Source: Candidatus Uhrbacteria bacterium
Lineage (GTDB): Bacteria; Patescibacteriota; Patescibacteriia; UBA9934
Length of the DNA: 64,000 nt
NCBI GenBank assembly: GCA_018664485.1
Contig: JABJOE010000007.1
Coordinates: forward strand, 68,353-132,352
Direction of reading: 5' to 3'
This document shows, piece after piece, positions 8,262-28,538 of the stretch (positions are counted from its first letter, which is position 1; the number at the start of each line of letters is the position of its first letter). The position numbers and the translations under genes were made by a program. The notes below the pieces were generated by a model, which was given only the letters and a program-made list of their open reading frames with translations, searched no databases and was not told where the DNA came from.

Positions 8262-8699
8262 TTATTCATCAGGGTGATAAACACCACCCGTATTAACTAC
8301 CAACGCAATATCTCCAAGACGTGACTTTTCAATCAGTCTTTTCTTTGGGATAACTGGCGCAGGCTGTTTTACAACTTTTTCTCGAAGTTGAGCTTTCAGC
8401 GTCCGCGTATCAACTGTCTTGTCCCAAACACGAAGCATCGGCTTACGGAAAGTCTGAATCATGTTTAGAGCAATGTAATGAACCGGTCGCCCGTTAACCT
8501 TCACGAAAGCAATGATGATTCCACCAGCAAGTACCGGAACACCCAAAGCTATAATAGCGATAATGCTGAGGAAAATTCTATAAATCAGAAATTCAGCTAA
8601 TACCGTTGCAAGTAAAATCAAAAATTGTCGCGCCGTAATAGGTCCGATAATCTTCGCCTCGGTATCTAAGAATTGTGGGACAACAAATTGCTCTGGCAT
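8262..8699 (-). CDS. VirB3/PrgI-like small membrane protein (145 aa)
   Basis: Two adjacent TM helices (ARQFLILLATVLAEFLIYRIFLSIIAIIALGVPVLAGGIIIAF) and a position immediately upstream of the VirB4-like genes match the Gram-positive T4SS gene order. Confidence 0.5.
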   Translation of the reverse strand: MPEQFVVPQFLDTEAKIIGPITARQFLILLATVLAEFLIYRIFLSIIAIIALGVPVLAGGIIIAFVKVNGRPVHYIALNMIQTFRKPMLRVWDKTVDTRTLKAQLREKVVKQPAPVIPKKRLIEKSRLGDIALVVNTGGVYHPDE

Positions 8700-8975: not shown

Positions 8976-10925
8976 CTAAAATTTCACCTGTGAGTTCAGT
9001 GTAACGATCGCCTTCAATTCAGCAGGGCTTAAAGTCTCCTCCCCTTGATTTCGCAATTTAGCCGCAACTTCTGCAACAGAACTACCACTATGCAACCCCT
9101 CCTGTACCATCGATAAGTACAGCTGATTAATCGGACTTGATCGCCACGCAGCGATACCTGCAATGCGCTCTTCGTAATCCGTTTCTTCAAGCAATGAAAG
9201 TGTGTCAGCGACTTTTCTTGCAGACCCGTCTGGATCCGATGCCAACCTACGGAAATCAGAAACCTTCATAGTCCCTAATTCTTCCACAGGACCAATAAGT
9301 GTTGGTATATATTTTACATCCGTTACTTTTTGACGCTCTTTTGGTGCCGCTTTCGGTGGAGCAGAGGCAGTACTCAGCTTAACTTTCGCTTTTGACGGGC
9401 GATCCTTAGCTCGTGCCTCTCGCTCAGATCCCACATCAACCTTTTCGTGTTGAGCGCTAAGCTCCTCGTCTTTTGTTCGTGCAGCACTCACTCGAGCGCC
9501 AGGAAGTACCGGTTTTATAGACTCTTTGGATGGACTCTTTGTCAGCGCCGCATACCGACGATCCATTATATTTCCACCAGCCTTCTTTGGAACTTGCCCA
9601 ACTTTCACAACCTGCTTAACTTTTTTGTGCGACAATTCCCACTCCTGCCTTATAAGAGCGAGTGATTTAATAGCAGTTTGAGCCGTCTTCCCGTCGAACC
9701 CGTGAAGCTCTTTTAACTGCTGGAACAAACGATCTGGCCCCAGTCTTCCCTTCATGACAGCTTCCGCATAAGAAGCAGCCTTTTTCTTCGTAAGTTTCTT
9801 GCCAGTTGCATGTTCGAGTAAAACACCAGCCGCTTTCTCAATTTCTTTTGAAATAGATTTTGCACTCACAACTGGAGTAGATTTTTCGAGCTTGCGCTTA
9901 TGCTCTTCGATCTCCTGCTTTTCTTTATGATCAATAAGTTCGCCAGCTATGACAGGGACTTCTTTTGTAAGTGCAGTCGTCGTTAAAATTGCCGGTGGGG
10001 CCGCTTTTGAAACAGCTACCTCAACGGATTTTTCAGATGTTACCCCAGGCTCTGGCTTCGGTTGCCGCTTTTTGTAGGTGATCTTTACTTCGGGTTTTTT
10101 CTTTTCGATTTTTGGTTCTTTTGGGACTTCTTGCACGATCGGCCTTGGTTCCGGCTTAGGTTCCGGCTTAGGTTCCGGCTTAGGTTCCAGCTTAGGTTCC
10201 AGCTTAGGTTCCGGTAATGATATTACCTCAGGCGTAACAGGCTTTTCCTCGATCTTTTTTCCACCATCTGCTTTGGTAGGTTCTGGCAAGTCAATAACAT
10301 CTTCTTTAGCGCTCATTTCACCTTTGTAATCTTCCGCAGCCGTAAGATCTAATGCATCTAACCAACCCAATACCTTCGTAATATGTACATCAGCTAATCC
10401 AAGACCACCAATATTCATCGGCCGTTTCATCAATGTTACTGTCGCATCTTTACTTCGCTCTTTGCTCAAATAACCCTTTGCAAGATATACAAAACGTTTC
10501 AATAAATGTTCCGGCAAATCTAGCCCGAGTTTATCAGCCTGTGCACGCAATAATGAAACAACAGTAACTGAGTCTTCTTTGAGTCTAATCGTAGAAAAAT
10601 CAGTCACCTTCCCTCCCCAAGCAATCAGTTGTTTTTCTACCCCACCAATATAATGATCGAGTTGCAACAACCTATGTCCTGCGAGCTGAATAGATATAGC
10701 CTTAGCGTCATCTTTTGACACCCCAAAAGCCTCCTTCACAAAATCCGGCATCTTATCAATCGCAAGATGTCCATCCATTACAGCATCTAATAAATCTAAA
10801 AACTCCTCTCCACGCCCCGCTGGGAGACTGTATTTTTCCTCAAGTGTATCGAGAACGTCGTAAATCTCAATGCCCATCAAGAATTTACGGATTTTGCTAA
10901 CAGATTTTAAATTCCGTTTTACCAT
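8976..10925 (-). CDS. hypothetical Lys/Pro-rich protein (649 aa) with a central (PEPK)n linker. It is a T4SS-cluster component of unknown role.
   Basis: A complete ORF with no TM helix. It contains the low-complexity PEPKLEPKLEPKPEPKPEPKPEPRP and a conserved-looking C-terminal globular region. Confidence 0.6.
   Translation of the reverse strand: MVKRNLKSVSKIRKFLMGIEIYDVLDTLEEKYSLPAGRGEEFLDLLDAVMDGHLAIDKMPDFVKEAFGVSKDDAKAISIQLAGHRLLQLDHYIGGVEKQLIAWGGKVTDFSTIRLKEDSVTVVSLLRAQADKLGLDLPEHLLKRFVYLAKGYLSKERSKDATVTLMKRPMNIGGLGLADVHITKVLGWLDALDLTAAEDYKGEMSAKEDVIDLPEPTKADGGKKIEEKPVTPEVISLPEPKLEPKLEPKPEPKPEPKPEPRPIVQEVPKEPKIEKKKPEVKITYKKRQPKPEPGVTSEKSVEVAVSKAAPPAILTTTALTKEVPVIAGELIDHKEKQEIEEHKRKLEKSTPVVSAKSISKEIEKAAGVLLEHATGKKLTKKKAASYAEAVMKGRLGPDRLFQQLKELHGFDGKTAQTAIKSLALIRQEWELSHKKVKQVVKVGQVPKKAGGNIMDRRYAALTKSPSKESIKPVLPGARVSAARTKDEELSAQHEKVDVGSEREARAKDRPSKAKVKLSTASAPPKAAPKERQKVTDVKYIPTLIGPVEELGTMKVSDFRRLASDPDGSARKVADTLSLLEETDYEERIAGIAAWRSSPINQLYLSMVQEGLHSGSSVAEVAAKLRNQGEETLSPAELKAIVTLNSQVKF
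10141..10212. repeat. 12-bp tandem microsatellite, (GGTTCCGGCTTA)x6 with C/A variants, encoding (PEPK)n
   Basis: ggttccggcttaggttccggcttaggttccggcttaggttccagcttaggttccagcttaggttccgg is seen directly in the sequence. Confidence 0.85.
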
Positions 10926-13949: not shown

Positions 13950-15764
13950 CTACTCCATCGACCTGCAATCGGTATGCGAGAGCGGTGACAATTCACCAGC
14001 CTGCACCTGAAAACACAGGGCGTGACTCATGTCCTGGTTTTCGTGACAGAGCTCAGAGCTGGTAGACGATGAAAGACAGTCCTGCCAGAACATCGCCCAC
14101 TCACTTTGCGTCCTCATGTTGATGCGATACCAACCCTCATCGAAAGCGTACCAGCCAATGTCGGTATCAGTATCGTACTCAACGAGATAACTCATGTCGT
14201 ACGACCATCCACCGCTCACTCCAACGCCGGTCACGGCAACATCAGCTCCATCTACTGAATTCGAGAACGTTTCACCAATTCGCAAGCCAAGCGCTGCGCC
14301 ATCCACGTAAATCCACGTCAGACCTTCTGCGAGATCATCGGGAATAACCGGCTCCTCCTGCTCATCATCTTGTGTGCCACCAGTGTCGCCTTCGTCTTCG
14401 GACGTGTCTCCCTCCCCCTCCTCGTCGTCTTGAATACCCCCGTCTGCTGAATAGGTTCCCTCAACCGTCGGACCACCACAGGTCATGATGTCGGCACTCG
14501 ACAGGCAATAACTTCCAGAAGCGCAGTCGCCCACCCTACTCATTACCGATCGGATCGAGCCATCGTCCACTTGCATGAGCTCGCGGTCGTACAGATCCAT
14601 CAGCAGATATGTTTCCCAGTCCAAGATAGGCATTGCGATGCCATCTGCGACGAAGTACACGTCCGACTCTCCGGCCTCGGTCACAATCGTTCCGTCTCGG
14701 AAAGGTGTGAAGCTATTTACTACCGGGTAGTGCTCGAGCATATTACTGTCGCCGCTCAGATCATCGTATGTACTCGCCGTAATACCCCAGCTCTTGAGCG
14801 TGGCCTGCCAAGTACTCGTACGAACTCGCTGTGCGTATCGATTTTCGTCATCACCAGCACCGACCAACAGCCAAACCTGGCCATCGTCGTAGAGCGCCCG
14901 GATCTCCGTCGCCGTCTCCAGCATCGTTCCTGTGTCAAAGCAGCTGAGCTCCCTCTCATCAACGATCACCAGATCATCAAAAGAGAAGTTGTAGCTCCAG
15001 AACACCTCCTCATCGAGAATTTCACGTGCTTTGCCACCCTCGATGAGGTAGACGTTCGAATCGCTTGGCGTCTTTACCAATGCCCCGTTTGGATGCCACT
15101 TGGACGTACTCAGTTGCGAATCATAGATATGCCCGTCGTAGAGTCCACAGACGAAGTCTGCGACCGGGATCGTGCGAACGACCGTATTTGACCGGTCATA
15201 AGCACGGATCGACAGACCATCAATGGACGTACCTAGCGAAGCGTTTACCCACGCATCTCCCTCATGGCGACCAATATGAACATGGTCGCCGGTTGCAGCA
15301 CCAGTAGCCCCTTCAAAGCCAAGAATCTGGCCGGAAGCAACTTCTTCACCGTGCTCAATGAGTACAGCACTCAAGTGCGCGAGCAGAATGTAAGTTCCGT
15401 CACCCAAATCAATGTTGATGTGTGTACCGAAGCCATCGGTGCTTTCGTGTACATATGCCGTGCCGCCGATTGGTGCGTAAAGCAAGTCGTCAGACACATT
15501 GGGCGTGTCGAAGTCCAAATCGAACTGCGTTGAGATGTATGCGTGCGAATAGCTTTCGCCCACACCCTGCACACACTGACTCGAGTAGCCCGAAGCGAAG
15601 GGCATATTGATGGTAATCGCATCGCGGCCACCTCCAACGCCGGGACTCACAGTCGACACATCATGATACGCGCCACATCCGCCATAGGACACAACGAACA
15701 TCACCAGCGCCGTCCCCCATGCAATCGCATTGAGAACCGCCAGAACCGTTTTGATAGTCGGCAT
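13950..15764 (-). CDS. secreted M23-family metallopeptidase (peptidoglycan hydrolase), 604 aa, with an acidic C-terminal tail
   Basis: An N-terminal hydrophobic segment (LAVLNAIAWGTALVMFVV) is followed by the M23 motif (FEGATGAATGDHVHIGRHEGD, i.e. HxH) and upstream H/D residues. The gene is the first of the T4SS-like operon and has a local GC of about 55-58%. Confidence 0.75.
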   Translation of the reverse strand: MPTIKTVLAVLNAIAWGTALVMFVVSYGGCGAYHDVSTVSPGVGGGRDAITINMPFASGYSSQCVQGVGESYSHAYISTQFDLDFDTPNVSDDLLYAPIGGTAYVHESTDGFGTHINIDLGDGTYILLAHLSAVLIEHGEEVASGQILGFEGATGAATGDHVHIGRHEGDAWVNASLGTSIDGLSIRAYDRSNTVVRTIPVADFVCGLYDGHIYDSQLSTSKWHPNGALVKTPSDSNVYLIEGGKAREILDEEVFWSYNFSFDDLVIVDERELSCFDTGTMLETATEIRALYDDGQVWLLVGAGDDENRYAQRVRTSTWQATLKSWGITASTYDDLSGDSNMLEHYPVVNSFTPFRDGTIVTEAGESDVYFVADGIAMPILDWETYLLMDLYDRELMQVDDGSIRSVMSRVGDCASGSYCLSSADIMTCGGPTVEGTYSADGGIQDDEEGEGDTSEDEGDTGGTQDDEQEEPVIPDDLAEGLTWIYVDGAALGLRIGETFSNSVDGADVAVTGVGVSGGWSYDMSYLVEYDTDTDIGWYAFDEGWYRINMRTQSEWAMFWQDCLSSSTSSELCHENQDMSHALCFQVQAGELSPLSHTDCRSME

Positions 15765-16423
15765 TCCGACTCCATTTGTAGAAGTACATGAGAAACGTAA
15801 TCGAAATGATCAACGGCCTCCCTTTTTGTAGGAGTCCCACAATTTGCGGGGGTAGAAAAAGTGAACGTTGAGTACTTCGATATATTGATTCGTGCGGGGC
15901 GGGCCGAAACCCACCCCAGAAGGACGAACACGAATCGTTGCGATCCTCACTCCCCATAAGGATCTATAGACTGTCACTCATCGATGACATATGTCAGGAT
16001 CTCGCGATGAGCGTTGTAACCGATGCGGTCTACACAATAACCAGGACGGCGTTTGATATGCGGCTAACAATTCTCTCTCCTCATGTTGCTACATACGTTT
16101 ACGGGCGGGCCAGTAAATTGCGTTTCGTTTTTGCAGAGGTTCCTACATCCATTTCCTCATGTACACAGACCATCTGCAATAGTTCTTTTAGTGTGTTCTG
16201 GCTGTTTGCTGTCAAAGTGATTTGGCAGCCTGTTTATTTTTGTAATGTTGAGCGCTACCGATGGTGTCATCGTTACTCGACAGCTCATGGGGACAACATT
16301 TTTGAGAAATAATCACGGCGCAAGATTTGAAATAGTTTTACAGAAACTTTTTATAAAAAAGCATCAATCCCCGCCCGAGAGTTCTCGGACGGGGTCATAC
16401 GCTTTAAATCTCACTCTACGCTA

Positions 16424-17226
16424 TCAGGGTTTGAGGTTGCTGAGGCATGCCGCCTTGCGAGCTTTTCTCGCTGCGTTTTCTTGTTCCTCTTCGTCGCGCC
16501 ATTCTCGGATAAGCTTCTCGATTCGCTCTTGGTCTGATCCGCCTTGAGCTTCGCGTACTCGGAGCTCTTCGATGTAGCTCGGCGTGAATTCCGGAGTAAA
16601 GGCGCCGCCCGGATATCTCGCACTACTATGTGCACCCGGGAATTCTTCAGAACACGGCGAGTAATCAGTGATGATCATTGCAGTCACATGCACAGGCTCT
16701 GCAAGCTCGCCCGTTCGAAGGCCGCATGGGTCACTTGGCATCATGCACTTGCGTGCAAGCATTTCCACCGAGCTACGCTCGTTGCCGGCGCTATCATAGT
16801 AGATCCAGCGATCCGGGTCATTGACCTTACCGTGAACCCAGAGAAGTCCAATCGCCATAGCTACAGCAACTACGCGAGACATCGCCTGGCCACGGCTCAC
16901 AACTACACGTCTCCATGGACGGTTCTTACTTCCCCATCCGGCTCGTTCGTATACAGCACCCTCCCACCAATTGACATCGAACAAGCCAGGCGCGATTACG
17001 GAGTCTGCCGAATCAGGATCTCCGGGTGCGTAGCGGGGATCGGTATCTGACGTACCGCTGCCTCCGCCGATTCCGAGTTCTTGTATGACCGCTCCGGCCA
17101 GTGAATCATCCTCACCTACGTCTTCGTAATCAGGCACCCTTACACGTGGAGCCCCCTCAGGCCTTGGTCGTGAAGCAGCTCTGCGCGACCGTCCTGTAAC
17201 CGTACCTCTTACTGGAAATCTACTCA
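16424..17226 (-). CDS. hypothetical protein (267 aa) with an Arg-rich N-terminus and a central TM helix. It lies in a GC-rich islet.
   Basis: An ATG at 17226 is preceded by GGAGAGGAGG. The ORF caller extended to 17278. The sequence includes RVVAVAMAIGLLWV. Confidence 0.5.
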
Positions 17227-17621
17227 TGAAGCCTCCTCTCCCCCGGCACACGATAAAATTTAAATAGTATTTCGTCAAAACAATTATGTAGTCTTGGTTG
17301 AGAGTTGGATATATTTGAAAATTTCTGTTTTAGTTGGCTAGATTTGGCGAAAAGTTATTCAGTAGTTATGCACAATCGTAAATATATGAATTAGGCCGAA
17401 ACTAGCAATAAACATGAGTTTTTGTGTAGTTTTTGAAAAATCGTTTAAACTTCGCCAATTTTGTTCATGGATGGTTGACAGATCCATTGACTTTTTGGCT
17501 AATCCATGCCATGCTATAGATAGTTTCAAGGAGTGCGTCTTGCATTTTCCTGATCCCGTTCTTTCTGAGTCCGTTAAATCGGACATGCTGTAGCTGCAAC
17601 CCCCACCCACAACTCGAGGTC

Positions 17622-18332
17622 ATGATGCGCTTCCTTAGCCTTCTCACTCTCGCTGTGGCCCTGGCGGGCTGCGGCAATTCCAACAACCCAGACGCCGACG
17701 ACGGAAATGTCGGAGGCACCGATACGGACACCACGCTCAACGGCACCGCGTACTTCACGCCTGGCGGCATCGGCATCACCGACAGCGACGGCAACGTCAA
17801 CGTCGAAAGCTGCACCTCCACGCTGTACGAAGATGACGAGACGCTCAACTACGGTCTGACCGGCGAGACTCTCGCCGTCCCTGTGGCGAGCAACGGCGAC
17901 ATCGACGTCACTGTGAAGCACGGAAGCCCCGAGCTCGTTGGCTGTGACGGTCAGTACCTCCACCCCAGTGGCGGTCAGGACTACATGGCCTTGGACACCG
18001 AGTCCACGCTCAACGACGGCGACACCGAAAACGGCGACAGCCCCATCGGCTTCACCTACTTCGAGTGGGATGGTCAGCTCGACTGCTCTTTCTCGGACGA
18101 CTTCGGCTGGGAAGACGACTGCGATGGCGTGAACGACGCCACCAACGATGCTGGTAAAACCTGTGTCGACAATCGCGGCAAGCTCTCGATCTGCAATGAC
18201 AAGATCGACTTCAGCACCGGTATGGTCAACGGCGACGGTGTTTTGACCGATGTCGAAGCGACTGAGGCTGGACTGACACTGACTTTCCAGAGCAACGGTG
18301 TGAACACTCACGTGAATTGCACGGTCCGCTAG
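17622..18332 (+). CDS. Asp/Gly/Thr-rich lipoprotein (236 aa)
   Basis: Signal peptide with a lipobox, MMRFLSLLTLAVALAGCGNS. The mature part is Asp-rich. GC is about 60%. A GC hairpin plus T-tail follows downstream. Confidence 0.6.
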   Translation: MMRFLSLLTLAVALAGCGNSNNPDADDGNVGGTDTDTTLNGTAYFTPGGIGITDSDGNVNVESCTSTLYEDDETLNYGLTGETLAVPVASNGDIDVTVKHGSPELVGCDGQYLHPSGGQDYMALDTESTLNDGDTENGDSPIGFTYFEWDGQLDCSFSDDFGWEDDCDGVNDATNDAGKTCVDNRGKLSICNDKIDFSTGMVNGDGVLTDVEATEAGLTLTFQSNGVNTHVNCTVR

Positions 18333-18353
18333 TTCGGCCAGCGATCACCTTGG

Positions 18354-18396
18354 CCCCCGACATCCACCCTGTGGTGTCGGGGGTTCTGTGCGTTTA
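18354..18396 (+). terminator. GC-hairpin terminator of the islet family
   Basis: CCCCCGACAtccaccctgtggTGTCGGGGG is followed by TTCTGTGCGTTT. The tail matches the GGGG-TTTCGTGCGTCT tails found at 37104, 37536 and 45418. Confidence 0.5.
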
Positions 18397-18526
18397 AAAA
18401 CAGTTAGAAAAGTTTTTTAGTAACTAGGTGACTAAGTCGTTGAGACGTAAAAAGAAAACACTGGTGTTAACCAGTGTTTTCTTGCTTAGTTACTCAATAG
18501 CTAAATTATTCAGCAGCCCTCCACCC

Positions 18527-21500
18527 CTACGGCGTAACGTAAATATAACCATCATAATACACCCATGGATCATAGCCCGTGGCACCGTCAGGATACCGTT
18601 CGAAGTTACAGGAATAATTACTTACCTGAGCTCCAGCTACACTCTCATCAAAACAACCTTCATCGTCATCACAGATTCCAGTACACCATCCCCAGTTATC
18701 ACGAACATGTACTTTCGGCTGATACACACATGAAATTTCATCATATGTACATGGACTTACCTCTAAGTCGTTTCGATCATTCTCCGTACAGGTTGGTAAA
18801 TCTTCTGGAGCCCAGCACCTATAAGTGTGGGAATAGTTGAATTCATTAGGATCGCAAGTGTTACTAGTCAATCCCCATGCAGTATCTAGATCACACTTAG
18901 ATAGGGTACTCGTGTCATCAGATCCATCATCTTCACCATCCTGCAGACCGCGGTGGTTTTTATAATAGTTAGCTGCATCATCTGATCCAGATGTATCTCC
19001 ATCACCCCAGTCCACAATGATTCTACGTATTGGCAATTGATTCTTGTCTGCTGCTGCAAAGAATTTTAATGTTGCTCGGTAATAACCTCCCTCAGCCTCT
19101 ATATCTCCTTCATTTGTACTGTTAACTGTTAGTGCATCATCCTCATCCTCGTGACAATATTTCGTTCCACAATCCTCAGTATCCACTGACCAGACAGTAG
19201 GCGCCGATCCATATGTCTCACGCACATCACTTCCTGCGTCGTCACCTATATAATCACTTAGTGTTGTACCAGAAGCTCCTAGCTCCGTATCTTCATCCGC
19301 ACCATCACAATCCCCGTCACATACCTCAACGTATGACCCTTCAATAGTGTCATAATCCCCTATTTCTTGCTCTGGACCCTCCCAGTACCAAACACCTTCA
19401 AAATTAGCAAAGATTGAATTCATGCGGGTAATAACGGTACTCACACTATCACTCGTATCCCAACCGATGCTTGAGAGATCAAATGCAGGACCATTCAACT
19501 GAACAGTAAAGTCTGCATACGATCTAGCACTTGGGTCATCAGAATCCGTACTGTACGTATAGTCACGAGCGCTACATTCGCTACCAGCACCCGTTGAAGG
19601 TACCAACTCATAACAATCTCCAGTTCCGGTACCAGCATCCTCACAACAAGCAGGAATACGTACTGGAGCTAATCCAACCGGCGTACCATCGTCATCGTCC
19701 AAATCTACAGGATCTATGGAGGCACCATAAGGACCAGGTGAACTTTCTAGATCGTAACCAAGAGTAGAGATAGTTGTATCATAATTCGTTGACCACAATC
19801 GATCAGTCCAAGCAGCATTCTCACCAGGTCCGTTAGAAGTTTTAATGATCACCGTACAAGCCGGATATTTAAGAGGGTTGAGATACGCTTGGTAAAAACC
19901 ATCCCCGCCATCTGTACAACTTGTATTGCTAGAACATCCGCTCTGATATCTTAGATTGTCATACGTATCATTATCTGTATCACGTGGAACTCCCGGAATA
20001 GCACAGCGCTTCGCCTCATCAGCTACCACGTCAAAATTACCATTTAATGCATACACCCTATTAGTATGCCCATCATAATTCGCACTCCTTGTGTCATACG
20101 AAGGACTTACACCGGCGCGGTCAATAATACTATCAATATCACATTCACCTCCCGTATCAATATCTTGCGATCCATACGGTACACATACATAAGGGCAATC
20201 GTTCGCTCCTCCATGGTCACACTGCTCAGCATAGTTACCACTTCCATCAAAACTTTTCTCACACTTACCCATAAGTGCGAAATACCCATCATTACAAACT
20301 GCATTATCATCACAGTTCAAGTAGTTCTCACTACTTCTACTTCTACAAACTTGATTACCGTGTGTTTCGGCACAAGAAATAGACTCTGTTGAATATCCAG
20401 ATACCGACTGAGTAAATCCATGTTGAGTAGAGTTACTTGTATAGAAGTCCATGTATAGCTGAGTGTACCCACAATAGTAAACCTCCTCGGTATACCCTGC
20501 CCCTGAATACTTCGCATACAAGTCAGTCGCACCAGATACCTGATCAACCGGGAACCATGTCACACACGCACCCAGAACTTCATCTCCATTAATGTTCATT
20601 CCTGTGTCGCGCTCCAAGCAATATCCTTCGAGTCCGAAGAAGTCCTGAGATCTCGTTATCTTGTCACAGTTTCCAATATGACCATCTGCTCCGTAAGATC
20701 CATCTGACACAAATGAATCATCATAGTATCGGCAGTCATCATCGTCCCCACATAGCGCTCCGGCAACCGGTGAATCGGAAGAACAAACACCATTAACATT
20801 TATATCGCCTAGATCTGTTTCGTACGCTACGAATTGATCTCCGGATGTTTGGGTACCGACTCGAACATATGAACATTCACATGTTTCACCCGGCGCACAG
20901 GTTTGCGCAGACGAGAACCCTGCCTTCCAAGATGACGGAAGCATTCCTCCATAATAGTTGTCTGTACCAATAGTTTCGCCGTCAGCCGCGATGTCATCCA
21001 ATGTTAGTTGCTCTTCGGTTGTTTCAAGATCTACTACAGTACCACCACTCGCTGTAGTAGTCGCTGTTGAATCATCAGTATGTGATCCATATCCAAGATA
21101 AGACCACTCTGTCACCACATCAATTGTAAACGGACTGTCAGCTTCTGGTTGCGCTCGGCAATATGCATCTTCCGTTACCTCTGAGTCGAATTGGTTTCCG
21201 TTCACCGCCAAGAAGCATGTTCCGCCATAACATGACCCTTCTTTCGCAGCAGCTGATCCGAAACATGTGGATTCTTCATCCTCGCATGTAAAACTAGTAT
21301 TACAATTACCTGTTTCATCCACACATGACCCGGCAAGACAAATATCAGTTCCACTACAGTCGTCATCTTCTTCGCATGTATCGGTTGACACTGTGTAACA
21401 GACTCCCGTAATACACGAATCGCCATCGATTTCACAGTCATCGCTTTCGGCACATGCAGATCCGGTGCTTTCACAATACCCAACGGTACAATCCTCTGAA

Positions 21501-24500
21501 TAATCTTCAGAACAGTTTCCGGCAGAGTATCCGATTTGGTAATCATTATCGCTTGTAAGTACACATCTTCCAGTATCCGTACTACCACCACTCTGACAGT
21601 ATGAGTCGTCTTCGCATGGTAGGCCGTGGTAAGTCTCCCATGGCAAATCATCTTCAGTATACTCATTACTCATGTCACAGAATCCTGCAGGTGGCGCTAC
21701 ATTCACCTGCGTTAAGTGCTGAATTGGGAAAATGTCTGGCACTGCATAACCTGAATACTCCTCTCCATACCAAGACACATCACGCGAAACATAGCGATCT
21801 GTATCAAACACGACAGCTGGATCGTTTGGATCCCACTCACTACACAATGAAGCGCTTGAGCTTCCGCCGTATTCTGTACACAAATCAATTCCGTCACAAA
21901 TAGTTCGATACTTTCCGGCATCTCCATCCCAAATAGTGTAGGAAGAAGAGCACGCAAGCCACTCAGAGCATGTACGGTCACGAGTAACCTTTAATACACG
22001 GTTTGAATCATTCTCAAGTCGATCGGGTTCAATAGCGATATTGACTTCATCTGTAAAACAGAATCCCGCGCTACTGTCGCCAGTATCTGTGTCATATGCA
22101 GGACAGTCTGAGTTATCGATACATGACCCACCGTACTCATATGCATCCGTAAAGTCTGGGTAGTCGGCTAAATCAAAGTCGGAATAAAGGAAACCTTTGT
22201 ACCAAGCACATCGTTGATCACACAAATCGATCTCGGTACCATCTGGCGTTACCATCAATGACGTAGCTTCCGAAGTACAGTCAATCGGATCAACAAGTGC
22301 GAATGCGCGATCACCATGCAATTCGTCAGCACGAGCGGACGAGATATACGTTGCAGATGAGTTGTAATCAGACGCCGTATCTCCAGCATCGTTAAACAGA
22401 GCACAACCAAGCTTTTGGCTGACCTGTCCATTACATTGCTGTGAAGACAATAGGTTCGTCTCATCAAGCGATGCGTTATCTATATAGTAGTAAGATTCAC
22501 CGTCTGTTGTTCCGTAAAATTCGTCATCATCGAAATCTAGGCGATCTTGGAATTCGGTACATGCTGAGTACTCAGGCTCACAAAGCCCTACCCAGCTATC
22601 AAATTCATCATCACCATTTCGCCAGATTCCACTTTCAGTTCCACCGACCAGGTATGTACCTGTGTCGACAGAACACTCTCCGTAACTTGTATTAGTAGTA
22701 GTATCGTAACAATCTGCGTCTGATGAACATGAAACTTCATCTGACCCATCAAGCTCTGCACAAACACCTGTTCCATAACAGAACTCGTTCGTACCATCTC
22801 GGAACCAACCGTCATACAACTCTCCATCAACCGTAATACTCGTCTTATATTCACAAGTATGTCCACCTGGGTTCTTGAAGTACCAAGTACCTTCAGATCC
22901 GGCATTCCATTCCTGACAGAACAATTCATCTTCTTCACAAAGAATGTCATCGTAACTATCTGGATCATTCATGAGGTATACAGTCTCCCAGCTATCTACA
23001 ACCGAAAGGTCTGCGCTAAACACCGGCTGTCCCAACTCCTCACAACCGTTATCTGCAGAGTTACATCGCACGGCATCTGTGACGATAGCGTAGATATCAC
23101 GATCAGCCTCAACTACCGTCGCATCTGGACCGTAATCTAGATGGAACATGTGAGCTTGTGTATCTAATAGATTCTCTGGAATGAACCAGTCTTCGAAATC
23201 GAACTCACAACTATCATCTCCGGCAATAATCGTACACAAAGCGGGAGATTCTTCATCGAATCCCTGACCGTCGTCGTCTATAAATAGATAACAACTTGTT
23301 CGCTCGTCACTCGTTGTAGGACTCTCCCAGTTTGTACCGTTACAATCCGAAGCCGATGAACATGCATCTCGTGATTCGCTACATAGCCCTGAATCACATG
23401 TCTCTACCTCATCAATATTGTTACACGTTGCATTGTATACAGTTATACCAGGCTCTTCTGACTCATTTGTCTGGTAGTACGCGTCACAACCAACCTTATC
23501 TTCATCACATAAAGTGCTGAAGGACTTCAAGTAAACAGTTTCAAAATCATGATCAGTGTACTCCTTACAACCAAGATGATATTGCGCAGACAATTCACCG
23601 TCTAGATTTTCATCACAAGATGCAGGAGTTACCCATGAATCTTTGATAACCGTAATATTGTCCTCCCCTTCTCGGAGAGTAACGTTGTCGATATAGAATG
23701 TTGATCCTGACGTTTCCGGCATGAATACCAACGATGTACCGTTTCCAAATTCTTCGTAGTCATCCTCGGTCATGTCGAGAGGTCCAACTGTATAGTGCTG
23801 CCAACCACTTTCAAGGTCGACATATGTTACCGCCTGACAATCGCTGTCGAGTGAACATGTAGTCGTACCGTCTGCAGAACACAAGCTGTCGCTACATACA
23901 GATCCGAATTCAGCCTCAAGTGCAATCGATGTTGAATCAAACTCCGTATCGAAACCAACGCTCAAGTCAGTAGTTCCCTTAGCCCAGAAGCTCAAGGTAT
24001 ACGTCTTTCCAGTAAAGAGCTGGTTATTCAACGTTCCACAGTAAGTATCTCCTTCGTCAACCGTACATTCACCTCCCAAGATGGATCCTGAGCTATCACA
24101 ACCTCCGTCAGTTGTACATTCAGCGGAACCGTATACATAAGTCCAAATATCCAAACCATCTGACCGGATTGAATGACCGTCTGTTGCGACTGATTCATTT
24201 GAAAGTAGTACGGATGTAGCGCTTGATGATTCCCAATCGGCAATCGTTCCACTTTCGAACAAATCCTTAAGTGCTACACGGCTATTTCCAGAGCTTCCAC
24301 CAGTATATTGGCGACAACCAGATTCTGTCTCCGAACACACAGTACTTTCTTCGCTATATCCAAAGTATCGGCATTCACCGTTGTCGTCATCGAAGAACCC
24401 ACCAGAACCATTACAGTTATCTTCTTGCTCGGAAGCGTCGTCGCCAACAATGTCAGTCTTTCGATACGCAACACAAGCGTTATTCACAGTTACAGTATCT

Positions 24501-27500
24501 GACCACTGACGGAAGTGAATTTCACCGTCAACATCGTAGAATTCTCGACAGTCTGGATTTTCAATAATATCAGCGTGAGAATCACAATCTTCAGTATCAG
24601 AATCTAGAGCACTGTCACCATCACTGTCATCGATACACTCTAAAGTCTCACCGTCAGTTGTTTCAGCCTGCCAAGTTGTACAAGGCGCAGCACCAGGGGC
24701 GTCATCTACTTCAGTGGAACCTGCATGCGTTATATCTGAATAACTATCCAAATCAGACTCTAGAAGCTCCCAAGTTCTCAACTGGTAACCTTCTTCATCT
24801 GATCCTTCCCATGTGTAGAAAGTAGCAGCACCATCGCTATCATCTGCCTGCTCTTCTGTGATACAAGCGCGCAAATATGTGTAATATTCTTTTCCTTCTG
24901 TAACTAAGTTTGTAAATTCGTCACAACCAACCGCATCTTCACTACATTGATCGGCGGTCTCTGGAATAAAGTAGATTGGGAACGCTCCGTCTGGCTCATA
25001 CAATGTCTCCTCCTGACGGAATGTGTCATACCCGGAACATTCTGACGGACATTCATCCAATTCAGTAACAACTGCTGTAACACCAGGATCTCCATTTGCC
25101 GGAGTGTAAAGCGTACAACCAGCTTCCTGCTCAGTACAAATTCCGGCATAGTCAGCACATTCGTCTGGATCACTCGCAGAACCGGTACATCCAAGGTAAG
25201 CCGGCGGCAAGATAACGGAATCAGTAGTGTAGTTACCTGTGTTGTATCCAGCATGATAAGACGATGCGTCTTCAGCCTGTTCTATTTGAACATCATCGAT
25301 CCAAACATCCGCACCTGAGAAACTTGTGATTGCGTAAATGTCTAAAGTTTTATCAGTAAGAATAGGTGTAGTGAACGTACACTCGAACCGTTCATATGAA
25401 GTTGAGTCTGGAATAGCGGTAGTATCTTCAATCAAAATTGATTCATACGTTGTACCGTCAGTATCAATGTCGGCAATACTACAGTCCCCTCTATAGCTCG
25501 TACCACTCAACTGAACCTGAGTACCATTTTCATCAGTAAGCCATACATACGCGTCAACACCGTTTGTATTCGCACTATCAGTCTGTGCTGCGTAGAAACT
25601 GAATGAATAGAACCTGCTTTGCTGAAGCGTTGTTCCATATTTGTAGAAACTACCAGAAGCACCTGGGCTAATTGCCGCATCTCCAGTACGTCCTACGTCG
25701 TTTTCTGTGTCATATGTGGCATCACTCAAAATCCATGTATCTGGCCACTCATCACTATTTGCATCCGTTTCAAAACCACCGTTTGTCATCATGTTAAGCC
25801 GAAGATCATCAGTACGTTCAATCACCTCTGAACATCCGCCAGAACCTTCGCTACATGTCTCAACATTAGCATTGAAGTAAATTCTATCCTTATAGACGTC
25901 TTCATCCTCATCTTCAGCCTCAACGCTAGGAATGGAAGGCCAGTCATATACATCTTCAGAATCAAGCTCCTTTACCGTCTCATACCAAGTACAACCCTGG
26001 TTATTAACGCTACAGTCTCCGTAATCTAAAGTATTTGTAAGGAAATCAACAGGAACATCGTCTACATCGGTAAACGACAAACAACTAGCGTACTGCTCAG
26101 GGCATTCATCCCCTCGGAAGCGCCAAATGTTTTTCTCACGTACACAATACCCATATCCACCAGTACAGTTTCCGTAAGCATCTTCTTGAACACAACTCTC
26201 AATATCAACACATTCTTCAGCGCGATCAGCTGTACCAGCACTCTTTAGAGTTTGTCCGTAAGCCAATGTTCGACACTGTGTATCTGGGAACTTCAATACC
26301 CAATCAGGATCGATAAGGTGACACCATGGGTGCTCATCATCCAATTCCCCATCGCTATTACACTGATGGAATCCATCCATGACCTCCTGAAGTGTAATCG
26401 GATCTGATTCAGAGTTTGCTGGTGATTCTACCGCTAGCTCCCAACCAGTTGAAATAACACGCGCGCGACGCATCTTTACTATATTGGAATGACAGAAACC
26501 GTAGGTGTAACATTTAGAATCTTGATCTCGAGCCGAATCTGCAGCCGAAATAAGTGGCCAGCCGCCATCGATGTAACCCTCTTCAACAGCCTCAATAAGT
26601 GTTAGCGGGGATCCGGCGTCAGCACGAGCAACGGCTGATGCAAACGACGTATCTATAGCACAGTTAAACAGCCCTGGTTGACTTCCGCGGAATGTAGCAG
26701 GACATGTTGAAAGTTCGGATAGTAATGAATAGTCCGTAATACTCAGAGGTCGGAAAGATAGAATATCCGAAAACTGCTCAGCAATTCGAGATGAATCGTA
26801 AGAAGAAGTTCCATCTGAATCAAACGGATCGTAATCAGAAGAATACTCAGGATAGCTTACCACCTCGTCAAAAAGACCTCCACGCCATCGACCCATTAAA
26901 GTCGTGATCAAAGTGTTTGTGAATATCGAAGCAGCACTTGATCCAATTCCAATAAGTGCCTCTGAGTTACTAAGCAACCCTATCGATATATCAGTTGGTA
27001 GAGTTTTTGCTGCGAACAATGATTGATACAGATCCGAAGACACAAATGACTGCGGCGTCAGTCGCGCTCCAGTAATCGGATCTACAACAGGCTTAAACCC
27101 ATCTGCTTCAGTATTTTCTTCAGCGCCAACAGTCGCCTCTTCAGCCGCTTGCTCAGTTGAAGTCATCAGGATTTCAAGTCCAGCTCCGATTTCGCTCACA
27201 CTTGGATCAAACCCTTCTGAAATAACGGAAAGAATCGCTACCGTCTTCTCCTCTGCTGTAATTTCTGAATCAAGAGAAAGTGTTGCAAGATAACCTTCGA
27301 AGTTTTTAGAAACCTCTGGAAAGTCACTCTCAGGAACTGCTGACTGTTGAGTTGATCTCAAACCAAGACGCATCGCCTGCAAGATATCTTCGTCATCCGT
27401 AAGATAGACTCCAAAATCCGGAAGAATACCACCGCTTGTAATATTATCAGGCACAATCCCATTAACTAGCTCGGCAACCACACCAGCCGCCAGATTGTCC

Positions 27501-27823
27501 ATGTAATCCTGCGTTGGTAGAGAGTTGTAGAGTGGGGCACCAGCATTTCCACCAGTTCCAACCCAAAGCGCTGACTCATAGGCAAACTTATTTGCCATGT
27601 AGCTAAGCAAGTTCAAAAGCGCCGCTGTAAGTGCCGCAATAAGCGCCTGCTTAATCACTGCCTTAACATTATCAACGATAACCTTTGCAGCATCACTTGC
27701 CACAACGTCTGGAGACAACGCATATACCGGCTTTGGAATACCGGCTACAAGTACAAAATTGAAAATCAGCGCTACAAGTATGAAGGCTGAACCAAGTCTA
27801 GATTTAAATCCTTTAGGAATCAT
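18527..27823 (-). CDS. giant secreted or cell-surface protein (3098 aa). It is Cys/Asp/Thr/Gly-rich with an N-terminal signal anchor and at least two CBM4/9-like carbohydrate-binding-type domains.
   Basis: A single uninterrupted 9297-bp ORF starts MIPKGFKSRLGSAFILVALIFNFVLVAGIPKPVYA. It has hundreds of Cys in short spacings (C-x-C and C-x3-C). Two segments match the CBM_4_9 pattern: NGGFE...W...RFYSFSFYAAQ...VWIDDVQIE and LFESGTIADWE...TYTLSFWAKG...FYIDNVTL. Only short antisense ORFs overlap it. Confidence 0.8.
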   Translation of the reverse strand: MIPKGFKSRLGSAFILVALIFNFVLVAGIPKPVYALSPDVVASDAAKVIVDNVKAVIKQALIAALTAALLNLLSYMANKFAYESALWVGTGGNAGAPLYNSLPTQDYMDNLAAGVVAELVNGIVPDNITSGGILPDFGVYLTDDEDILQAMRLGLRSTQQSAVPESDFPEVSKNFEGYLATLSLDSEITAEEKTVAILSVISEGFDPSVSEIGAGLEILMTSTEQAAEEATVGAEENTEADGFKPVVDPITGARLTPQSFVSSDLYQSLFAAKTLPTDISIGLLSNSEALIGIGSSAASIFTNTLITTLMGRWRGGLFDEVVSYPEYSSDYDPFDSDGTSSYDSSRIAEQFSDILSFRPLSITDYSLLSELSTCPATFRGSQPGLFNCAIDTSFASAVARADAGSPLTLIEAVEEGYIDGGWPLISAADSARDQDSKCYTYGFCHSNIVKMRRARVISTGWELAVESPANSESDPITLQEVMDGFHQCNSDGELDDEHPWCHLIDPDWVLKFPDTQCRTLAYGQTLKSAGTADRAEECVDIESCVQEDAYGNCTGGYGYCVREKNIWRFRGDECPEQYASCLSFTDVDDVPVDFLTNTLDYGDCSVNNQGCTWYETVKELDSEDVYDWPSIPSVEAEDEDEDVYKDRIYFNANVETCSEGSGGCSEVIERTDDLRLNMMTNGGFETDANSDEWPDTWILSDATYDTENDVGRTGDAAISPGASGSFYKYGTTLQQSRFYSFSFYAAQTDSANTNGVDAYVWLTDENGTQVQLSGTSYRGDCSIADIDTDGTTYESILIEDTTAIPDSTSYERFECTFTTPILTDKTLDIYAITSFSGADVWIDDVQIEQAEDASSYHAGYNTGNYTTDSVILPPAYLGCTGSASDPDECADYAGICTEQEAGCTLYTPANGDPGVTAVVTELDECPSECSGYDTFRQEETLYEPDGAFPIYFIPETADQCSEDAVGCDEFTNLVTEGKEYYTYLRACITEEQADDSDGAATFYTWEGSDEEGYQLRTWELLESDLDSYSDITHAGSTEVDDAPGAAPCTTWQAETTDGETLECIDDSDGDSALDSDTEDCDSHADIIENPDCREFYDVDGEIHFRQWSDTVTVNNACVAYRKTDIVGDDASEQEDNCNGSGGFFDDDNGECRYFGYSEESTVCSETESGCRQYTGGSSGNSRVALKDLFESGTIADWESSSATSVLLSNESVATDGHSIRSDGLDIWTYVYGSAECTTDGGCDSSGSILGGECTVDEGDTYCGTLNNQLFTGKTYTLSFWAKGTTDLSVGFDTEFDSTSIALEAEFGSVCSDSLCSADGTTTCSLDSDCQAVTYVDLESGWQHYTVGPLDMTEDDYEEFGNGTSLVFMPETSGSTFYIDNVTLREGEDNITVIKDSWVTPASCDENLDGELSAQYHLGCKEYTDHDFETVYLKSFSTLCDEDKVGCDAYYQTNESEEPGITVYNATCNNIDEVETCDSGLCSESRDACSSASDCNGTNWESPTTSDERTSCYLFIDDDGQGFDEESPALCTIIAGDDSCEFDFEDWFIPENLLDTQAHMFHLDYGPDATVVEADRDIYAIVTDAVRCNSADNGCEELGQPVFSADLSVVDSWETVYLMNDPDSYDDILCEEDELFCQEWNAGSEGTWYFKNPGGHTCEYKTSITVDGELYDGWFRDGTNEFCYGTGVCAELDGSDEVSCSSDADCYDTTTNTSYGECSVDTGTYLVGGTESGIWRNGDDEFDSWVGLCEPEYSACTEFQDRLDFDDDEFYGTTDGESYYYIDNASLDETNLLSSQQCNGQVSQKLGCALFNDAGDTASDYNSSATYISSARADELHGDRAFALVDPIDCTSEATSLMVTPDGTEIDLCDQRCAWYKGFLYSDFDLADYPDFTDAYEYGGSCIDNSDCPAYDTDTGDSSAGFCFTDEVNIAIEPDRLENDSNRVLKVTRDRTCSEWLACSSSYTIWDGDAGKYRTICDGIDLCTEYGGSSSASLCSEWDPNDPAVVFDTDRYVSRDVSWYGEEYSGYAVPDIFPIQHLTQVNVAPPAGFCDMSNEYTEDDLPWETYHGLPCEDDSYCQSGGSTDTGRCVLTSDNDYQIGYSAGNCSEDYSEDCTVGYCESTGSACAESDDCEIDGDSCITGVCYTVSTDTCEEDDDCSGTDICLAGSCVDETGNCNTSFTCEDEESTCFGSAAAKEGSCYGGTCFLAVNGNQFDSEVTEDAYCRAQPEADSPFTIDVVTEWSYLGYGSHTDDSTATTTASGGTVVDLETTEEQLTLDDIAADGETIGTDNYYGGMLPSSWKAGFSSAQTCAPGETCECSYVRVGTQTSGDQFVAYETDLGDINVNGVCSSDSPVAGALCGDDDDCRYYDDSFVSDGSYGADGHIGNCDKITRSQDFFGLEGYCLERDTGMNINGDEVLGACVTWFPVDQVSGATDLYAKYSGAGYTEEVYYCGYTQLYMDFYTSNSTQHGFTQSVSGYSTESISCAETHGNQVCRSRSSENYLNCDDNAVCNDGYFALMGKCEKSFDGSGNYAEQCDHGGANDCPYVCVPYGSQDIDTGGECDIDSIIDRAGVSPSYDTRSANYDGHTNRVYALNGNFDVVADEAKRCAIPGVPRDTDNDTYDNLRYQSGCSSNTSCTDGGDGFYQAYLNPLKYPACTVIIKTSNGPGENAAWTDRLWSTNYDTTISTLGYDLESSPGPYGASIDPVDLDDDDGTPVGLAPVRIPACCEDAGTGTGDCYELVPSTGAGSECSARDYTYSTDSDDPSARSYADFTVQLNGPAFDLSSIGWDTSDSVSTVITRMNSIFANFEGVWYWEGPEQEIGDYDTIEGSYVEVCDGDCDGADEDTELGASGTTLSDYIGDDAGSDVRETYGSAPTVWSVDTEDCGTKYCHEDEDDALTVNSTNEGDIEAEGGYYRATLKFFAAADKNQLPIRRIIVDWGDGDTSGSDDAANYYKNHRGLQDGEDDGSDDTSTLSKCDLDTAWGLTSNTCDPNEFNYSHTYRCWAPEDLPTCTENDRNDLEVSPCTYDEISCVYQPKVHVRDNWGWCTGICDDDEGCFDESVAGAQVSNYSCNFERYPDGATGYDPWVYYDGYIYVTP

Positions 27824-27845
27824 GTGATAATCGTAAGAAAAGTAC

Positions 27846-28538
27846 TTATTCTGCTTCGGCTATATCAATAGTTTCTTCAACAATAGCGTCAATCTCTCCG
27901 GATTCTTCCAAGTCGCCCAATACGGAATCATACAATGACTGCAAATCTTCATCAGAAATTTCAGAAAGCTGTTCTTCAGTTGCTCCAGCTTCTATCAAGA
28001 GACCGCGGATGTCATCAGGACCGAAATCTTTCAAAGCATCCGTTATGTCCTCCACCGCTTGTCCGTCTGTAGAGATAGAATCTAGATATGCAGACAAAGC
28101 TTCATTTTCAAGTCCAACTATCGAGTACTCATCTTCGCAGCGTCCACCCGCAGCACATGTCGGATCGGTACCTGCTTGAAGTTCTGTAAAATCGTTATCG
28201 CCGTCGCCATCTGTGTCAGCCAAGTACATGCTCGTTCCAAAGATGTAGAGCTCATCGTAGTCAGAAAGTAAATCACCGTCTGTATCTGATACTCTCTGGT
28301 CGGCGATCTCCTCTTCCCGTGCTTGATCTGAAGTTACAAACCGCTCACCCTCGTACTGAATATTAAAAGGATCAGACAGATGGTCGAAAAGATAAACAAC
28401 TCCCAAGATAATAGCGAGGAAGCCGCTTGCTACAACCAGAAAAAATCCAGCCCGTTGCTCACGTGTGAACGAAGGCTTTGTTTTTCTAATCTTTACGCGA
28501 TTGTCATGCACTTCAGGCATGCGACGAGCGATGCTCAA
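27846..28538 (-). CDS. membrane-anchored acidic protein (230 aa) with tandem DxDxDG-type (dockerin or thrombospondin-type-3-like) Ca-binding motifs
   Basis: TM helix GFFLVVASGFLAIILGVVYLF, with the motifs DTDGDLLSDYDE and DTDGDGDNDFTE. The gene is 22 bp upstream of, and co-oriented with, the giant gene. Confidence 0.55.
   Translation of the reverse strand: MSIARRMPEVHDNRVKIRKTKPSFTREQRAGFFLVVASGFLAIILGVVYLFDHLSDPFNIQYEGERFVTSDQAREEEIADQRVSDTDGDLLSDYDELYIFGTSMYLADTDGDGDNDFTELQAGTDPTCAAGGRCEDEYSIVGLENEALSAYLDSISTDGQAVEDITDALKDFGPDDIRGLLIEAGATEEQLSEISDEDLQSLYDSVLGDLEESGEIDAIVEETIDIAEAE

Follow-up and report, generated by a model that had tools for sequence, protein, structure and literature searches.

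A 64,000-nucleotide stretch of the Candidatus Uhrbacteria bacterium contig JABJOE010000007.1 (positions 68,353 to 132,352 of the forward strand), called the window below, carries a gene for a giant, cysteine-rich, apparently secreted protein, preceded by the gene for a small membrane protein and followed, on the same strand, by a monoderm-type type IV secretion system (T4SS) cluster. The window is otherwise ordinary chromosome from the candidate phyla radiation, or CPR, with genes for GroEL, RF-1, tRNA synthetases, NusA, YidC and the like. The open reading frame (ORF) of the giant protein, 18527..27823 on the minus strand, encodes 3,098 residues from an ATG start and, at 14.5% of the window, is its longest, in agreement with the preliminary description of this DNA, which had put it at about 15%. 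That description had also called the product rich in Cys, Asp, Thr, Gly and Tyr, and the computed composition agrees: Asp 11.8%, Ser 9.7%, Gly 8.8%, Thr 8.8%, Tyr 5.6% and Cys 4.65%, the last amounting to 144 residues. Lys and Arg together make up only 4.3%, and the protein is extremely acidic. Its first 370 residues are free of Cys.

The preliminary description had raised the possibility that the 9.3-kb ORF is a collapsed repeat, or the gene a pseudogene. The gene contains neither tandem nor long direct DNA repeats, the frame is uninterrupted, and an identical protein is recorded at NCBI as HON52_03220, from a 986-kb contig of a Candidatus Uhrbacteria bacterium. A set of 48 homologues, each about 3,000 residues long and 33-62% identical, spans 81-100% of the giant protein, most of them 99-100%, and in a full-length alignment about 50 homologues are collinear with it. 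The absence of DNA repeats, the identical NCBI protein and the collinear homologues show that the gene is neither a collapsed repeat nor a pseudogene. Overlapping ORFs reach at most 154 residues on the same strand in other frames, and at most 108 residues antisense, so that the antisense ones are indeed all short, as first described.

Export signal and termini

The N-terminus had been described as a signal anchor. Judged by inspection of its n-, h- and c-regions, it looks instead like a classical cleavable Sec (type I) signal peptide (residues 1-35, 27719..27823, minus strand; MIPKGFKSRLGS-AFILVALIFNFVLVAG-IPKPVYA|L), with a KxxKxR n-region, a 16-residue hydrophobic core, a VYA|L site and no lipobox. 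About 50 homologues share this layout, mostly with AxA|Q at the corresponding site, and cleavage is predicted to leave a mature protein of about 3,060 residues. A second candidate transmembrane (TM) segment, at residues 55-75, was rejected: homologues have a median hydrophobicity of 1.4 there, distant relatives an even lower one, and in the AlphaFold2 (AF2) model the stretch is part of a long helix.

The protein ends in ...DPWVYYDGYIYVTP, within a conserved DPWVYYDGxIxVxP sequence. At the C-terminus an LPXTG motif, a TM segment and a hydrophobic tail are all absent, both here and in every homologue inspected. Lacking a C-terminal anchor and having a cleavable signal, the mature protein would therefore be without any recognizable anchor of its own.

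Domain architecture and cysteine framework

The segments that follow the signal peptide are all given here with minus-strand coordinates. The first is a Cys-free N-terminal domain (residues 36-330, 26834..27718), predicted to be all-alpha with long helices (AF2 predicted local distance difference test score, pLDDT, of 50-70) and kept even in a relative only 25% identical (P0053). Next comes the most conserved part of the protein, a Cys-rich core (residues 371-664, 25832..26713) with about 63% mean identity in the alignment, whose invariant residues include R452, W461, E462, D505, P506, W508, R534, D540 and many Cys. Two beta-sandwiches resembling carbohydrate-binding modules (CBMs) of families 4 and 9, at residues 665-870 (25214..25831) and 1180-1386 (23666..24286, with YTLSFWAKG ... 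FYIDNVTL), flank a conserved Cys-rich region at residues 871-1179 (24287..25213), in which the AF2 model is confident for residues 980-1160. The central Cys-rich region, residues 1387-2250 (21074..23665), is non-repetitive and includes a stretch rich in CxxGxC and DxDC motifs at residues 2100-2250. Residues 2251-2900 (19124..21073) form the most variable and indel-rich region of the alignment, and a conserved C-terminal domain, residues 2901-3098 (18527..19123; IVDWGDG ... VHVRDNWGWCTG ... and the terminal motif given above), completes the protein. Conservation along the protein peaks at residues 400-600 and 900-1000 (about 63%), is lowest at about residues 2200-2900, where identity is 20-40% with many indels and up to 37% gaps, and recovers over the last 200 residues.

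The AF2 models covered residues 1-680 and 331-1440, one of the alignments used consisting of 25 sequences. The model of residues 1-680 has a mean pLDDT of 57 and shows an all-helical domain at residues 38-315 and a confident small domain at residues 385-510; a fold search found no significant PDB neighbor for either. Likeness of the N-terminal domain to ClyA, XaxB and AhlB was treated as noise (E at least 0.6 and probability under 0.1, from a model with pLDDT 50-65). A PKD-like assignment for the C-terminal domain, suggested by the WGDG motif, was likewise dropped after no PKD match appeared at E of 0.05 or below in 15 orthologues or in a PDB profile search. Only the distant relative P0053 carries such a match, a precomputed one to PF22352. 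Apart from the CBM family and a spike-fiber-like domain, both treated below, the giant matched no other family in Pfam (15 orthologues), NCBIfam or PHROG. A phage origin was rejected, as there are neither PHROG matches nor relatives among IMG/VR viral contigs.

In an alignment of 38 sequences, 121 of the 144 Cys residues are kept at 90% or more, and Cys counts among homologues are mostly even. Two insertions of four Cys each, CSDSLCSADGTTTCSLDSDC at 23837-23896 (residues 1310-1329, inside the second CBM-like domain) and CDSGLCSESRDACSSASDC at 23342-23398 (residues 1476-1494), are lineage-specific, with almost no orthologue sharing them, and resemble small disulfide knots grafted onto the framework. 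Conversely, most orthologues have a conserved Cys pair, FNxCxP ... PEPxCDF, in the otherwise Cys-free N-terminal domain, and the window's protein has lost both members (residues ~135-170, about 27300-27430 in the window).

The bulk of the protein had been thought to consist of repeated disulfide-rich modules, a view that did not survive closer comparison. A self-BLAST of the protein returned the self-match only. Profile-profile comparison of 200-residue alignment tiles with hhalign found one internal duplication, residues ~680-870 against ~1210-1400, which is the first CBM-like domain against the second (probability 92.6). The segments that follow each of these domains are also alike (residues 836-906 against 1372-1449, probability 79), and one further internal similarity is confined to a 22-residue motif. 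By these comparisons the giant is a non-repetitive protein with a fixed Cys framework.

The CBM-like domains

Two segments had been matched by eye to the CBM_4_9 pattern. The giant itself scores 23.4 bits against Pfam family PF02018 (CBM_4_9), under the gathering cut-off of 25.9, and 14 of 15 orthologues match the family at E of 0.05 or below, the best at 2.5e-8. A profile of the giant's family matches PDB entry 1gui, the CBM4 of laminarinase 16A (E 1.3e-3). The AF2 model of residues 331-1440 averages a pLDDT of 63, but reaches 80-90 across both CBM-like domains, and a Foldseek search with this model retrieved CBM61, CBM16, CBM4, CBM22 and CBM27 structures with probability 1.0 and template modeling scores of 0.5-0.7. 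Orthologue matches, structural models and the 1gui profile together bear out the fold, and we regard the presence of two CBM4/9-type beta-sandwich (jelly-roll) domains of about 130-200 residues as confirmed at the level of predicted structure. Further structural neighbors are the ephrin-receptor ligand-binding domain, receptor-binding domains of toxins, and phage fibers; the first domain also has a weak, sub-threshold match to a head-spike fiber domain of a gene transfer agent. The CBM beta-sandwich is a generic fold, which also serves in protein or receptor binding in toxins, phage fibers and ephrin receptors. CBM4, CBM9, CBM16, CBM22 and CBM61 modules resemble the giant's domains by the PF02018 and 1gui profiles, but the latter differ in sitting within a Cys-rich protein without a detected catalytic domain, and in the sub-cut-off PF02018 score of the giant's own sequence.

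The partner protein

Directly upstream of the giant gene lies a gene for a protein of 224 residues (27846..28520, minus strand), counted from the ATG at 28520, which is more likely the start than the TTG at 28538 that is listed as an alternative. Its ORF stops 22 nucleotides upstream of the giant's ATG. The product has a basic N-terminus, a single TM helix (residues 26-44), two thrombospondin type 3 (TSP3) repeats (residues 79-119) and a Cx5C loop, and it scores 25.3 bits against Pfam PF18884 (TSP3_bac), above the cut-off of 25, in support of the TM protein with calcium-binding motifs that had been placed 22 bp upstream. Five partner proteins, 28-43% identical to the window's and encoded beside giants 26-100% identical to the window's, were aligned. 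They share a short, basic N-terminus and the TM helix, two DxDxDGxxDxxE repeats with invariant Asp, Gly and Glu, the Cx5C loop and, towards the C-terminus, a helix motif that is acidic and conserved, IRxxLIQxGxDxxxLxxISDEEL.

The two repeats recall bacterial TSP3 proteins such as the Myxococcus cohesion protein MtsD, whose repeats the partner matches weakly. The partner differs in being a single-pass membrane protein of 224 residues with two repeats only, and it scores 18 bits against an MtsD equivalog cut-off of 800.

A large, slowly evolving, collinear family

A phmmer search with residues 331-1440 against 1.84 billion cluster representatives (50% identity) returned 1,262 proteins at E of 1e-3 or below, 1,079 of them at 1e-30 or below. 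Nearly all are 2,500-3,700 residues long, and the match begins near residue 320-380, in the same register. Among GTDB species genomes, at least 576 stretches encode relatives of the giant; the best 80 of these belong to records for Candidatus Uhrbacteria, Patescibacteria or the Parcubacteria group. The orthologues in related CPR genomes for which the preliminary description had proposed a search thus form a large family. In each locus examined the giant gene is single. Many of the species-representative records with such a locus (L007, L010, L012, L013, L020, L023 and others) bear the title "MAG TPA_asm: uncultured Gammaproteobacteria bacterium". Their loci are clearly Patescibacterial, and the titles appear to be mistaken.

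We compared rates of evolution by the median tblastn identity to the window's protein in up to 61 loci: 56% for RF-1, 44% for KsgA, 42% for Sua5, 36.6% for the giant, 35.6% for the partner and 33% for the VirB6-like protein of the T4SS cluster. On this measure the giant evolves at about the rate of KsgA, Sua5 and the T4SS membrane proteins, and the alignment indicates that it is under purifying selection along its whole length. Such slow evolution fits a part of a machine better than a rapidly varying adhesin. The exception is residues 2250-2900, which on sequence variability are a candidate specificity region.

The T4SS cluster and its conserved position

The T4SS genes of the window all lie on the minus strand. 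Nearest the giant is the gene for an M23 peptidoglycan peptidase of 604 residues with a VirB1-type role (13950..15764; Peptidase_M23, E 6.7e-13), followed by genes for an extended, polytopic VirB6-like protein of 993 residues that combines 6-7 TM helices with a hydrophilic tail of some 600 residues (10948..13929; its orthologues match PF19590, TrbL_3, weakly), a 649-residue protein with a Pro-rich and acidic middle (8976..10925), PrgI, which is VirB3-like (8262..8699; PF12666, 34.4 bits against a cut-off of 27), a TrsD/TraC-like protein that resembles the VirB4 N-terminus (7552..8256; sub-threshold matches in the window, and PF26593, TraC-like, in the orthologues from loci L004 and L005), and the VirB4 ATPase (5603..7525; Pfam P-loop_TraG, E 1e-25). 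A bitopic protein of 184 residues, for which a VirB8-type role is possible, closes the cluster (5045..5599). With VirB4, PrgI, a TrsD-like protein, a VirB6-like protein and a hydrolase encoded on one strand, the cluster can be classed by gene content as an MPF-FATA-like T4SS locus of Patescibacteria. No relaxase was seen in the window, and T4SS_pilin had no match among the cluster ORFs tested there. The M23 gene has an elevated GC content of 52-57% relative to its neighbors, and encodes a protein with 11 Cys and a strongly acidic Asp/Glu/Gly stretch.

The association of the giant with T4SS genes was assessed within 10-kb flanks in two sets of loci. In the Uhrbacteria clade, whose giants are about 30-65% identical to the window's, T4SS genes were scored in loci with at least 9 kb of flank: 29 of 35 such loci have them downstream, on the giant's strand and no more than 10 kb away, across spacers of 1.8-9.4 kb. 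The M23 gene likewise follows the giant in 29 of 35 loci of this clade. The second clade comprises 80 metagenome loci with giants of about 2,700 residues, about 26% identical to the window's. Here 44 of 46 loci have T4SS genes directly after the giant and on its strand, and the VirB6-like gene begins 0.65-3.7 kb past it, with one gene for a protein of about 200 residues in between; in L088 and L005 the gap from the giant to the next gene is 7-45 nucleotides. The M23 gene is absent from the T4SS clusters of this clade. T4SS genes of the window have orthologues in the second clade, at 67% identity for VirB4, 52% for the TraC-like protein, 43% for PrgI and 33% for the VirB6-like protein. All 74 evaluable Uhrbacteria-clade loci have the partner gene directly upstream of the giant, as do 58 of the 60 evaluable in the second clade, which makes 132 of 134 in all. 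Further upstream, directly before the partner, ksgA (an rRNA methyltransferase gene) is found in nearly all evaluable loci of both clades.

The location of the gene pair beside a T4SS-like cluster, across a GC-rich islet, therefore stands as first described, and the adjacency is conserved in two clades. Conservation of this adjacency in two deep clades makes the host-attachment idea of the preliminary description more credible.

In the window itself the giant gene and the M23 gene are separated by a 2.8-kb spacer (15765..18526) with a GC content of 56-62%, against about 45%. A hairpin with a stem of about 14 bp and a short U run lies 43-77 nucleotides past the giant's stop codon (18450..18484, minus strand), in a 198-nucleotide region that folds at -66.9 kcal/mol (z -4.3), and is likely, from its predicted fold, to be the intrinsic terminator of the partner-giant unit. 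Such a terminator after the giant implies that partner and giant form their own transcription unit in this genome.

A possible role in host contact, and the alternatives

Our preferred reading, held at about even confidence, is that the giant is a Sec-exported, disulfide- and probably calcium-stabilized receptor-binding protein that acts with the CPR T4SS in host contact; that the organism lives as an episymbiont is an assumption based on its lineage. According to this model, Sec would export the protein, the signal peptide would be removed, and the mature chain would fold oxidatively into a rigid framework with roughly 60-70 disulfides and probably with bound Ca2+. Disulfides and calcium are proposed because of the conserved Cys residues, the mostly even Cys counts and the extreme acidity. 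The partner, co-produced with the giant, would be an N-in membrane protein with a TSP3 ectodomain, and that ectodomain, the ectodomains of T4SS membrane proteins, or both would hold the giant at the cell surface, probably by way of its conserved, Cys-free helical N-terminal domain. Retention of this kind is suggested by the lack of an anchor in the giant itself. The CBM-type domains and the variable distal third would then bind host surface structures, glycans in the case of the CBM-type domains, and so bring the channel of the relaxase-less, MPF-FATA-like T4SS up against the host envelope. Giant and partner would in effect serve this Patescibacteria lineage as the host-contact module of its T4SS. 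Comparable roles are played by adhesins such as PrgB in Gram-positive conjugation and by VirB2/VirB5 pili elsewhere. A bolder version of the proposal, which we consider rather doubtful, makes the giant and its TSP3 partner the extracellular arm of the T4SS, replacing pili or adhesins as a tether to host glycans and perhaps forming part of the conduit.

Several observations weigh against a T4SS-linked role. No domain ties the giant to a known T4SS component in Pfam, NCBIfam or PDB profile searches. In six of the 35 Uhrbacteria-clade loci no T4SS gene lies within 10 kb, and in the window the terminator, followed by a 2.8-kb island with a convergent gene, means that the giant and the T4SS are not co-transcribed there. 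That ksgA is conserved too shows that gene order kept in these genomes can include unrelated genes, so synteny is no proof of function. On the structural side, the model of the N-terminal domain that might mediate retention is of low confidence and without a structural match, and the models reach residue 1440 only, about half of the protein.

An alternative, to which we give a rather low probability, is that the giant is a general surface adhesin or structural protein of the envelope, working with its partner independently of the T4SS, the adjacency reflecting only the very conservative chromosomal backbone of these small genomes. Upstream, ksgA, sua5, an epimerase gene and the RF-1 gene are roughly as constant in position as the T4SS genes are downstream; in the window a terminator of its own and a variable island set the giant apart from the T4SS; and large Cys-rich or giant surface proteins are described from other CPR bacteria with no stated T4SS link (PMC4736985, PMC8080830). 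However, in the clade whose giants are only 26% identical, where the upstream genes are partly different, the pair still leads into the T4SS in 44 of 46 loci, and a protein without a wall or membrane anchor needs some partner structure.

A host-directed toxin or membrane-breaching factor, which would bind a receptor through the CBM-like domains, as binary and Vip toxins do through theirs, and insert the long helices of its N-terminal domain into the host membrane to gain entry to the cytoplasm, is highly improbable. Among the structural neighbors of the CBM-like domains are indeed receptor-binding domains from iota toxin Ib, C. difficile CDT (RBD1), Vip3/Vip4 and Cry toxins, and the best, non-significant neighbors of the N-terminal domain include the alpha-pore-forming XaxB, ClyA and AhlB. 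CBM folds are generic, however, and the N-terminal matches are too poor, at the values and model quality already given, to count as evidence. Profile searches detected no catalytic or pore-forming family, and single-copy, slow, collinear evolution over 3,000 residues is unusual for toxins.

Similarly slight is the probability that the giant is a scaffold or enzyme that binds polysaccharide outside the cell to scavenge nutrients, with the CBMs targeting an unrecognized catalytic domain to a polymer. CBM4, CBM9, CBM16 and CBM22 are typically appended to glycoside hydrolases, and the invariant Arg, Glu and Asp of residues 371-664 could be catalytic. Yet no glycoside hydrolase, lyase or peptidase family was found in the giant, in 15 orthologues searched against Pfam, or in the PDB profile search, and neither the size nor the context of a conserved partner and a T4SS is typical of carbohydrate-active enzymes. 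Finally, an assembly artefact, collapsed repeat or pseudogene has a negligible chance of explaining the gene: the source is a metagenome-assembled genome, but the repeat-free, uninterrupted frame recurs, collinear and mostly end to end, in many independent assemblies.

Relation to described systems

A close parallel to the role proposed for the giant in T4SS-mediated host contact is PrgB, the aggregation substance of the MPF-FATA system of pCF10. In both cases a large, Sec-exported surface protein is encoded with a monoderm-type T4SS; pCF10-type loci share the set of PrgI/VirB3, VirB4, a VirB6-like protein and a cell-wall hydrolase; and PrgB makes contact with the target cell, a function only proposed for the giant. 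In contrast to PrgB, the giant shows no homology to the PrgB adhesin or Ig-like domains in Pfam or NCBIfam, has no LPXTG motif, is about 2.5 times larger, contains 144 Cys where PrgB has essentially none, and is accompanied by a dedicated TSP3 membrane partner; unlike PrgB systems, the T4SS here is chromosomal, with no relaxase in view. A 2025 survey of T4SS in Patescibacteria detected no PrgB-like adhesin (PMC12102498).

Within the CPR, the Cys-rich proteins of Peribacteria (PMC4736985) and the giant proteins of Vampirococcus (PMC8080830) resemble the giant in size, signal peptide, high Cys content, a presumed role in attachment and a lack of functional annotation. Those sets are multi-gene and strain-variable and carry integrin, FG-GAP, PKD, WD40 or similar domains, whereas the giant, compared with them by description, is collinear across its family and has a fixed Cys framework, two CBM-like domains, a partner and a T4SS neighborhood. 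The arrays of VirB2-like pilins and the VirB5 tips of Saccharibacteria (PMC10633639, PMC12857230) are likewise extracellular, linked to a T4SS, candidates for essentiality and thought to reach the host, and they are encoded within or at the edge of the T4SS cluster. VirB2 pilins differ in being small polymerizing subunits rather than a single polypeptide of 3,098 residues; that the giant stands in place of a pilus is speculation. Other giants, of the RTX/Bap-like, EGF-repeat or Myxococcus Cys-repeat kinds, differ in that the giant has no tandem module arrays and matched no repeat family.

The T4SS of a cultivated Saccharibacterium is essential and relaxase-less, with its function described as unknown and its adhesin as unidentified (PMC12102498, PMC12857230, PMC10633639), and essential polysaccharide-binding envelope proteins are reported from the same organism (PMC10633639). 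Few systems of a cultivated Patescibacterium have been shown to be indispensable for epibiotic growth; the T4SS is one of them, and its extracellular parts are described as unknown (PMC12102498, PMC12857230, PMC11665869). In the literature searched, the coverage of which was incomplete, we found no description of the giant family or of its linkage to a T4SS, and the family is not mentioned in PMC12102498. Large Cys-rich surface proteins of the CPR and T4SS adhesins are thus known as such, and the new element is an undescribed family of very large, collinear proteins. On sequence and gene order, the family stands out as a strong candidate for a component of host contact that is associated with the T4SS in one part of the CPR.

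Each of these tiny Uhrbacteria-type genomes spends about 9 kb on the giant gene, always with the same small partner and almost always beside T4SS genes. If the bolder version of the proposal is correct, the pair would belong to a class of T4SS surface structures not recognized before, and would be the first candidate for the means by which the T4SS of CPR bacteria reaches its host. Even if the link to the T4SS fails, a non-repetitive giant with about 64 conserved, predicted disulfides and made mostly of unrecognized folds marks a notable gap in structural annotation.

The variable spacer and other genes of the locus

The spacer between the giant and the M23 gene contains a lipoprotein ORF on the plus strand (17622-18332; LAGC/MMRFLSLLTLAVALAGC lipobox, 8 Cys, rich in Asp, Thr, Gly and Asn), almost wholly overlapped by an antisense ORF of 245 residues (17574-18311), and an Arg-rich ORF of 284 residues on the minus strand (16424-17278). 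Neither the lipoprotein ORF nor the 284-residue ORF has homologues in 85 related loci or in the 80 loci of the second clade. In locus L001 the same slot carries 9 kb with Ham1, QueC, NDK and thymidylate-synthase-like genes. With no homologues of its ORFs in related loci, and other cargo in another genome, the GC-rich islet was rejected as a part of the giant/T4SS system, and the slot looks like an insertion hot spot. A second strong hairpin, with a GC-rich CCCCCGACA...TGTCGGGGG stem, lies at 18355-18384, nearer the lipoprotein gene. It and the hairpin assigned to the giant both fall in the 195-nucleotide gap between the convergent giant and lipoprotein genes, and a consensus terminator scan missed both.

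Two second-clade loci, L004 and L005, have genes for RadA and DsbA after the T4SS cluster. The DsbA-family thiol-disulfide oxidoreductase genes (4364-5140 in L004 and 26802-27545 in L005), beside the giant-T4SS cluster, fit a need to oxidize about 130 Cys residues. DsbA was rejected as a general feature of giant loci, since neither the window nor the other loci searched yielded such a gene. Just past the T4SS cluster of the window lies a ComF-like gene encoding a phosphoribosyltransferase with a double zinc ribbon (4085-4708). Competence and recombination genes beside the T4SS are a pattern reported for loci of the class ABY1 (PMC12102498); the ComF-like, RadA and DsbA neighbors match it and hint at a DNA-related role of the T4SS. 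Elsewhere in the window, a second M23 peptidase gene, for a protein of 236 residues (48756-49466), sits beside tRNA genes and a thymidine kinase gene.

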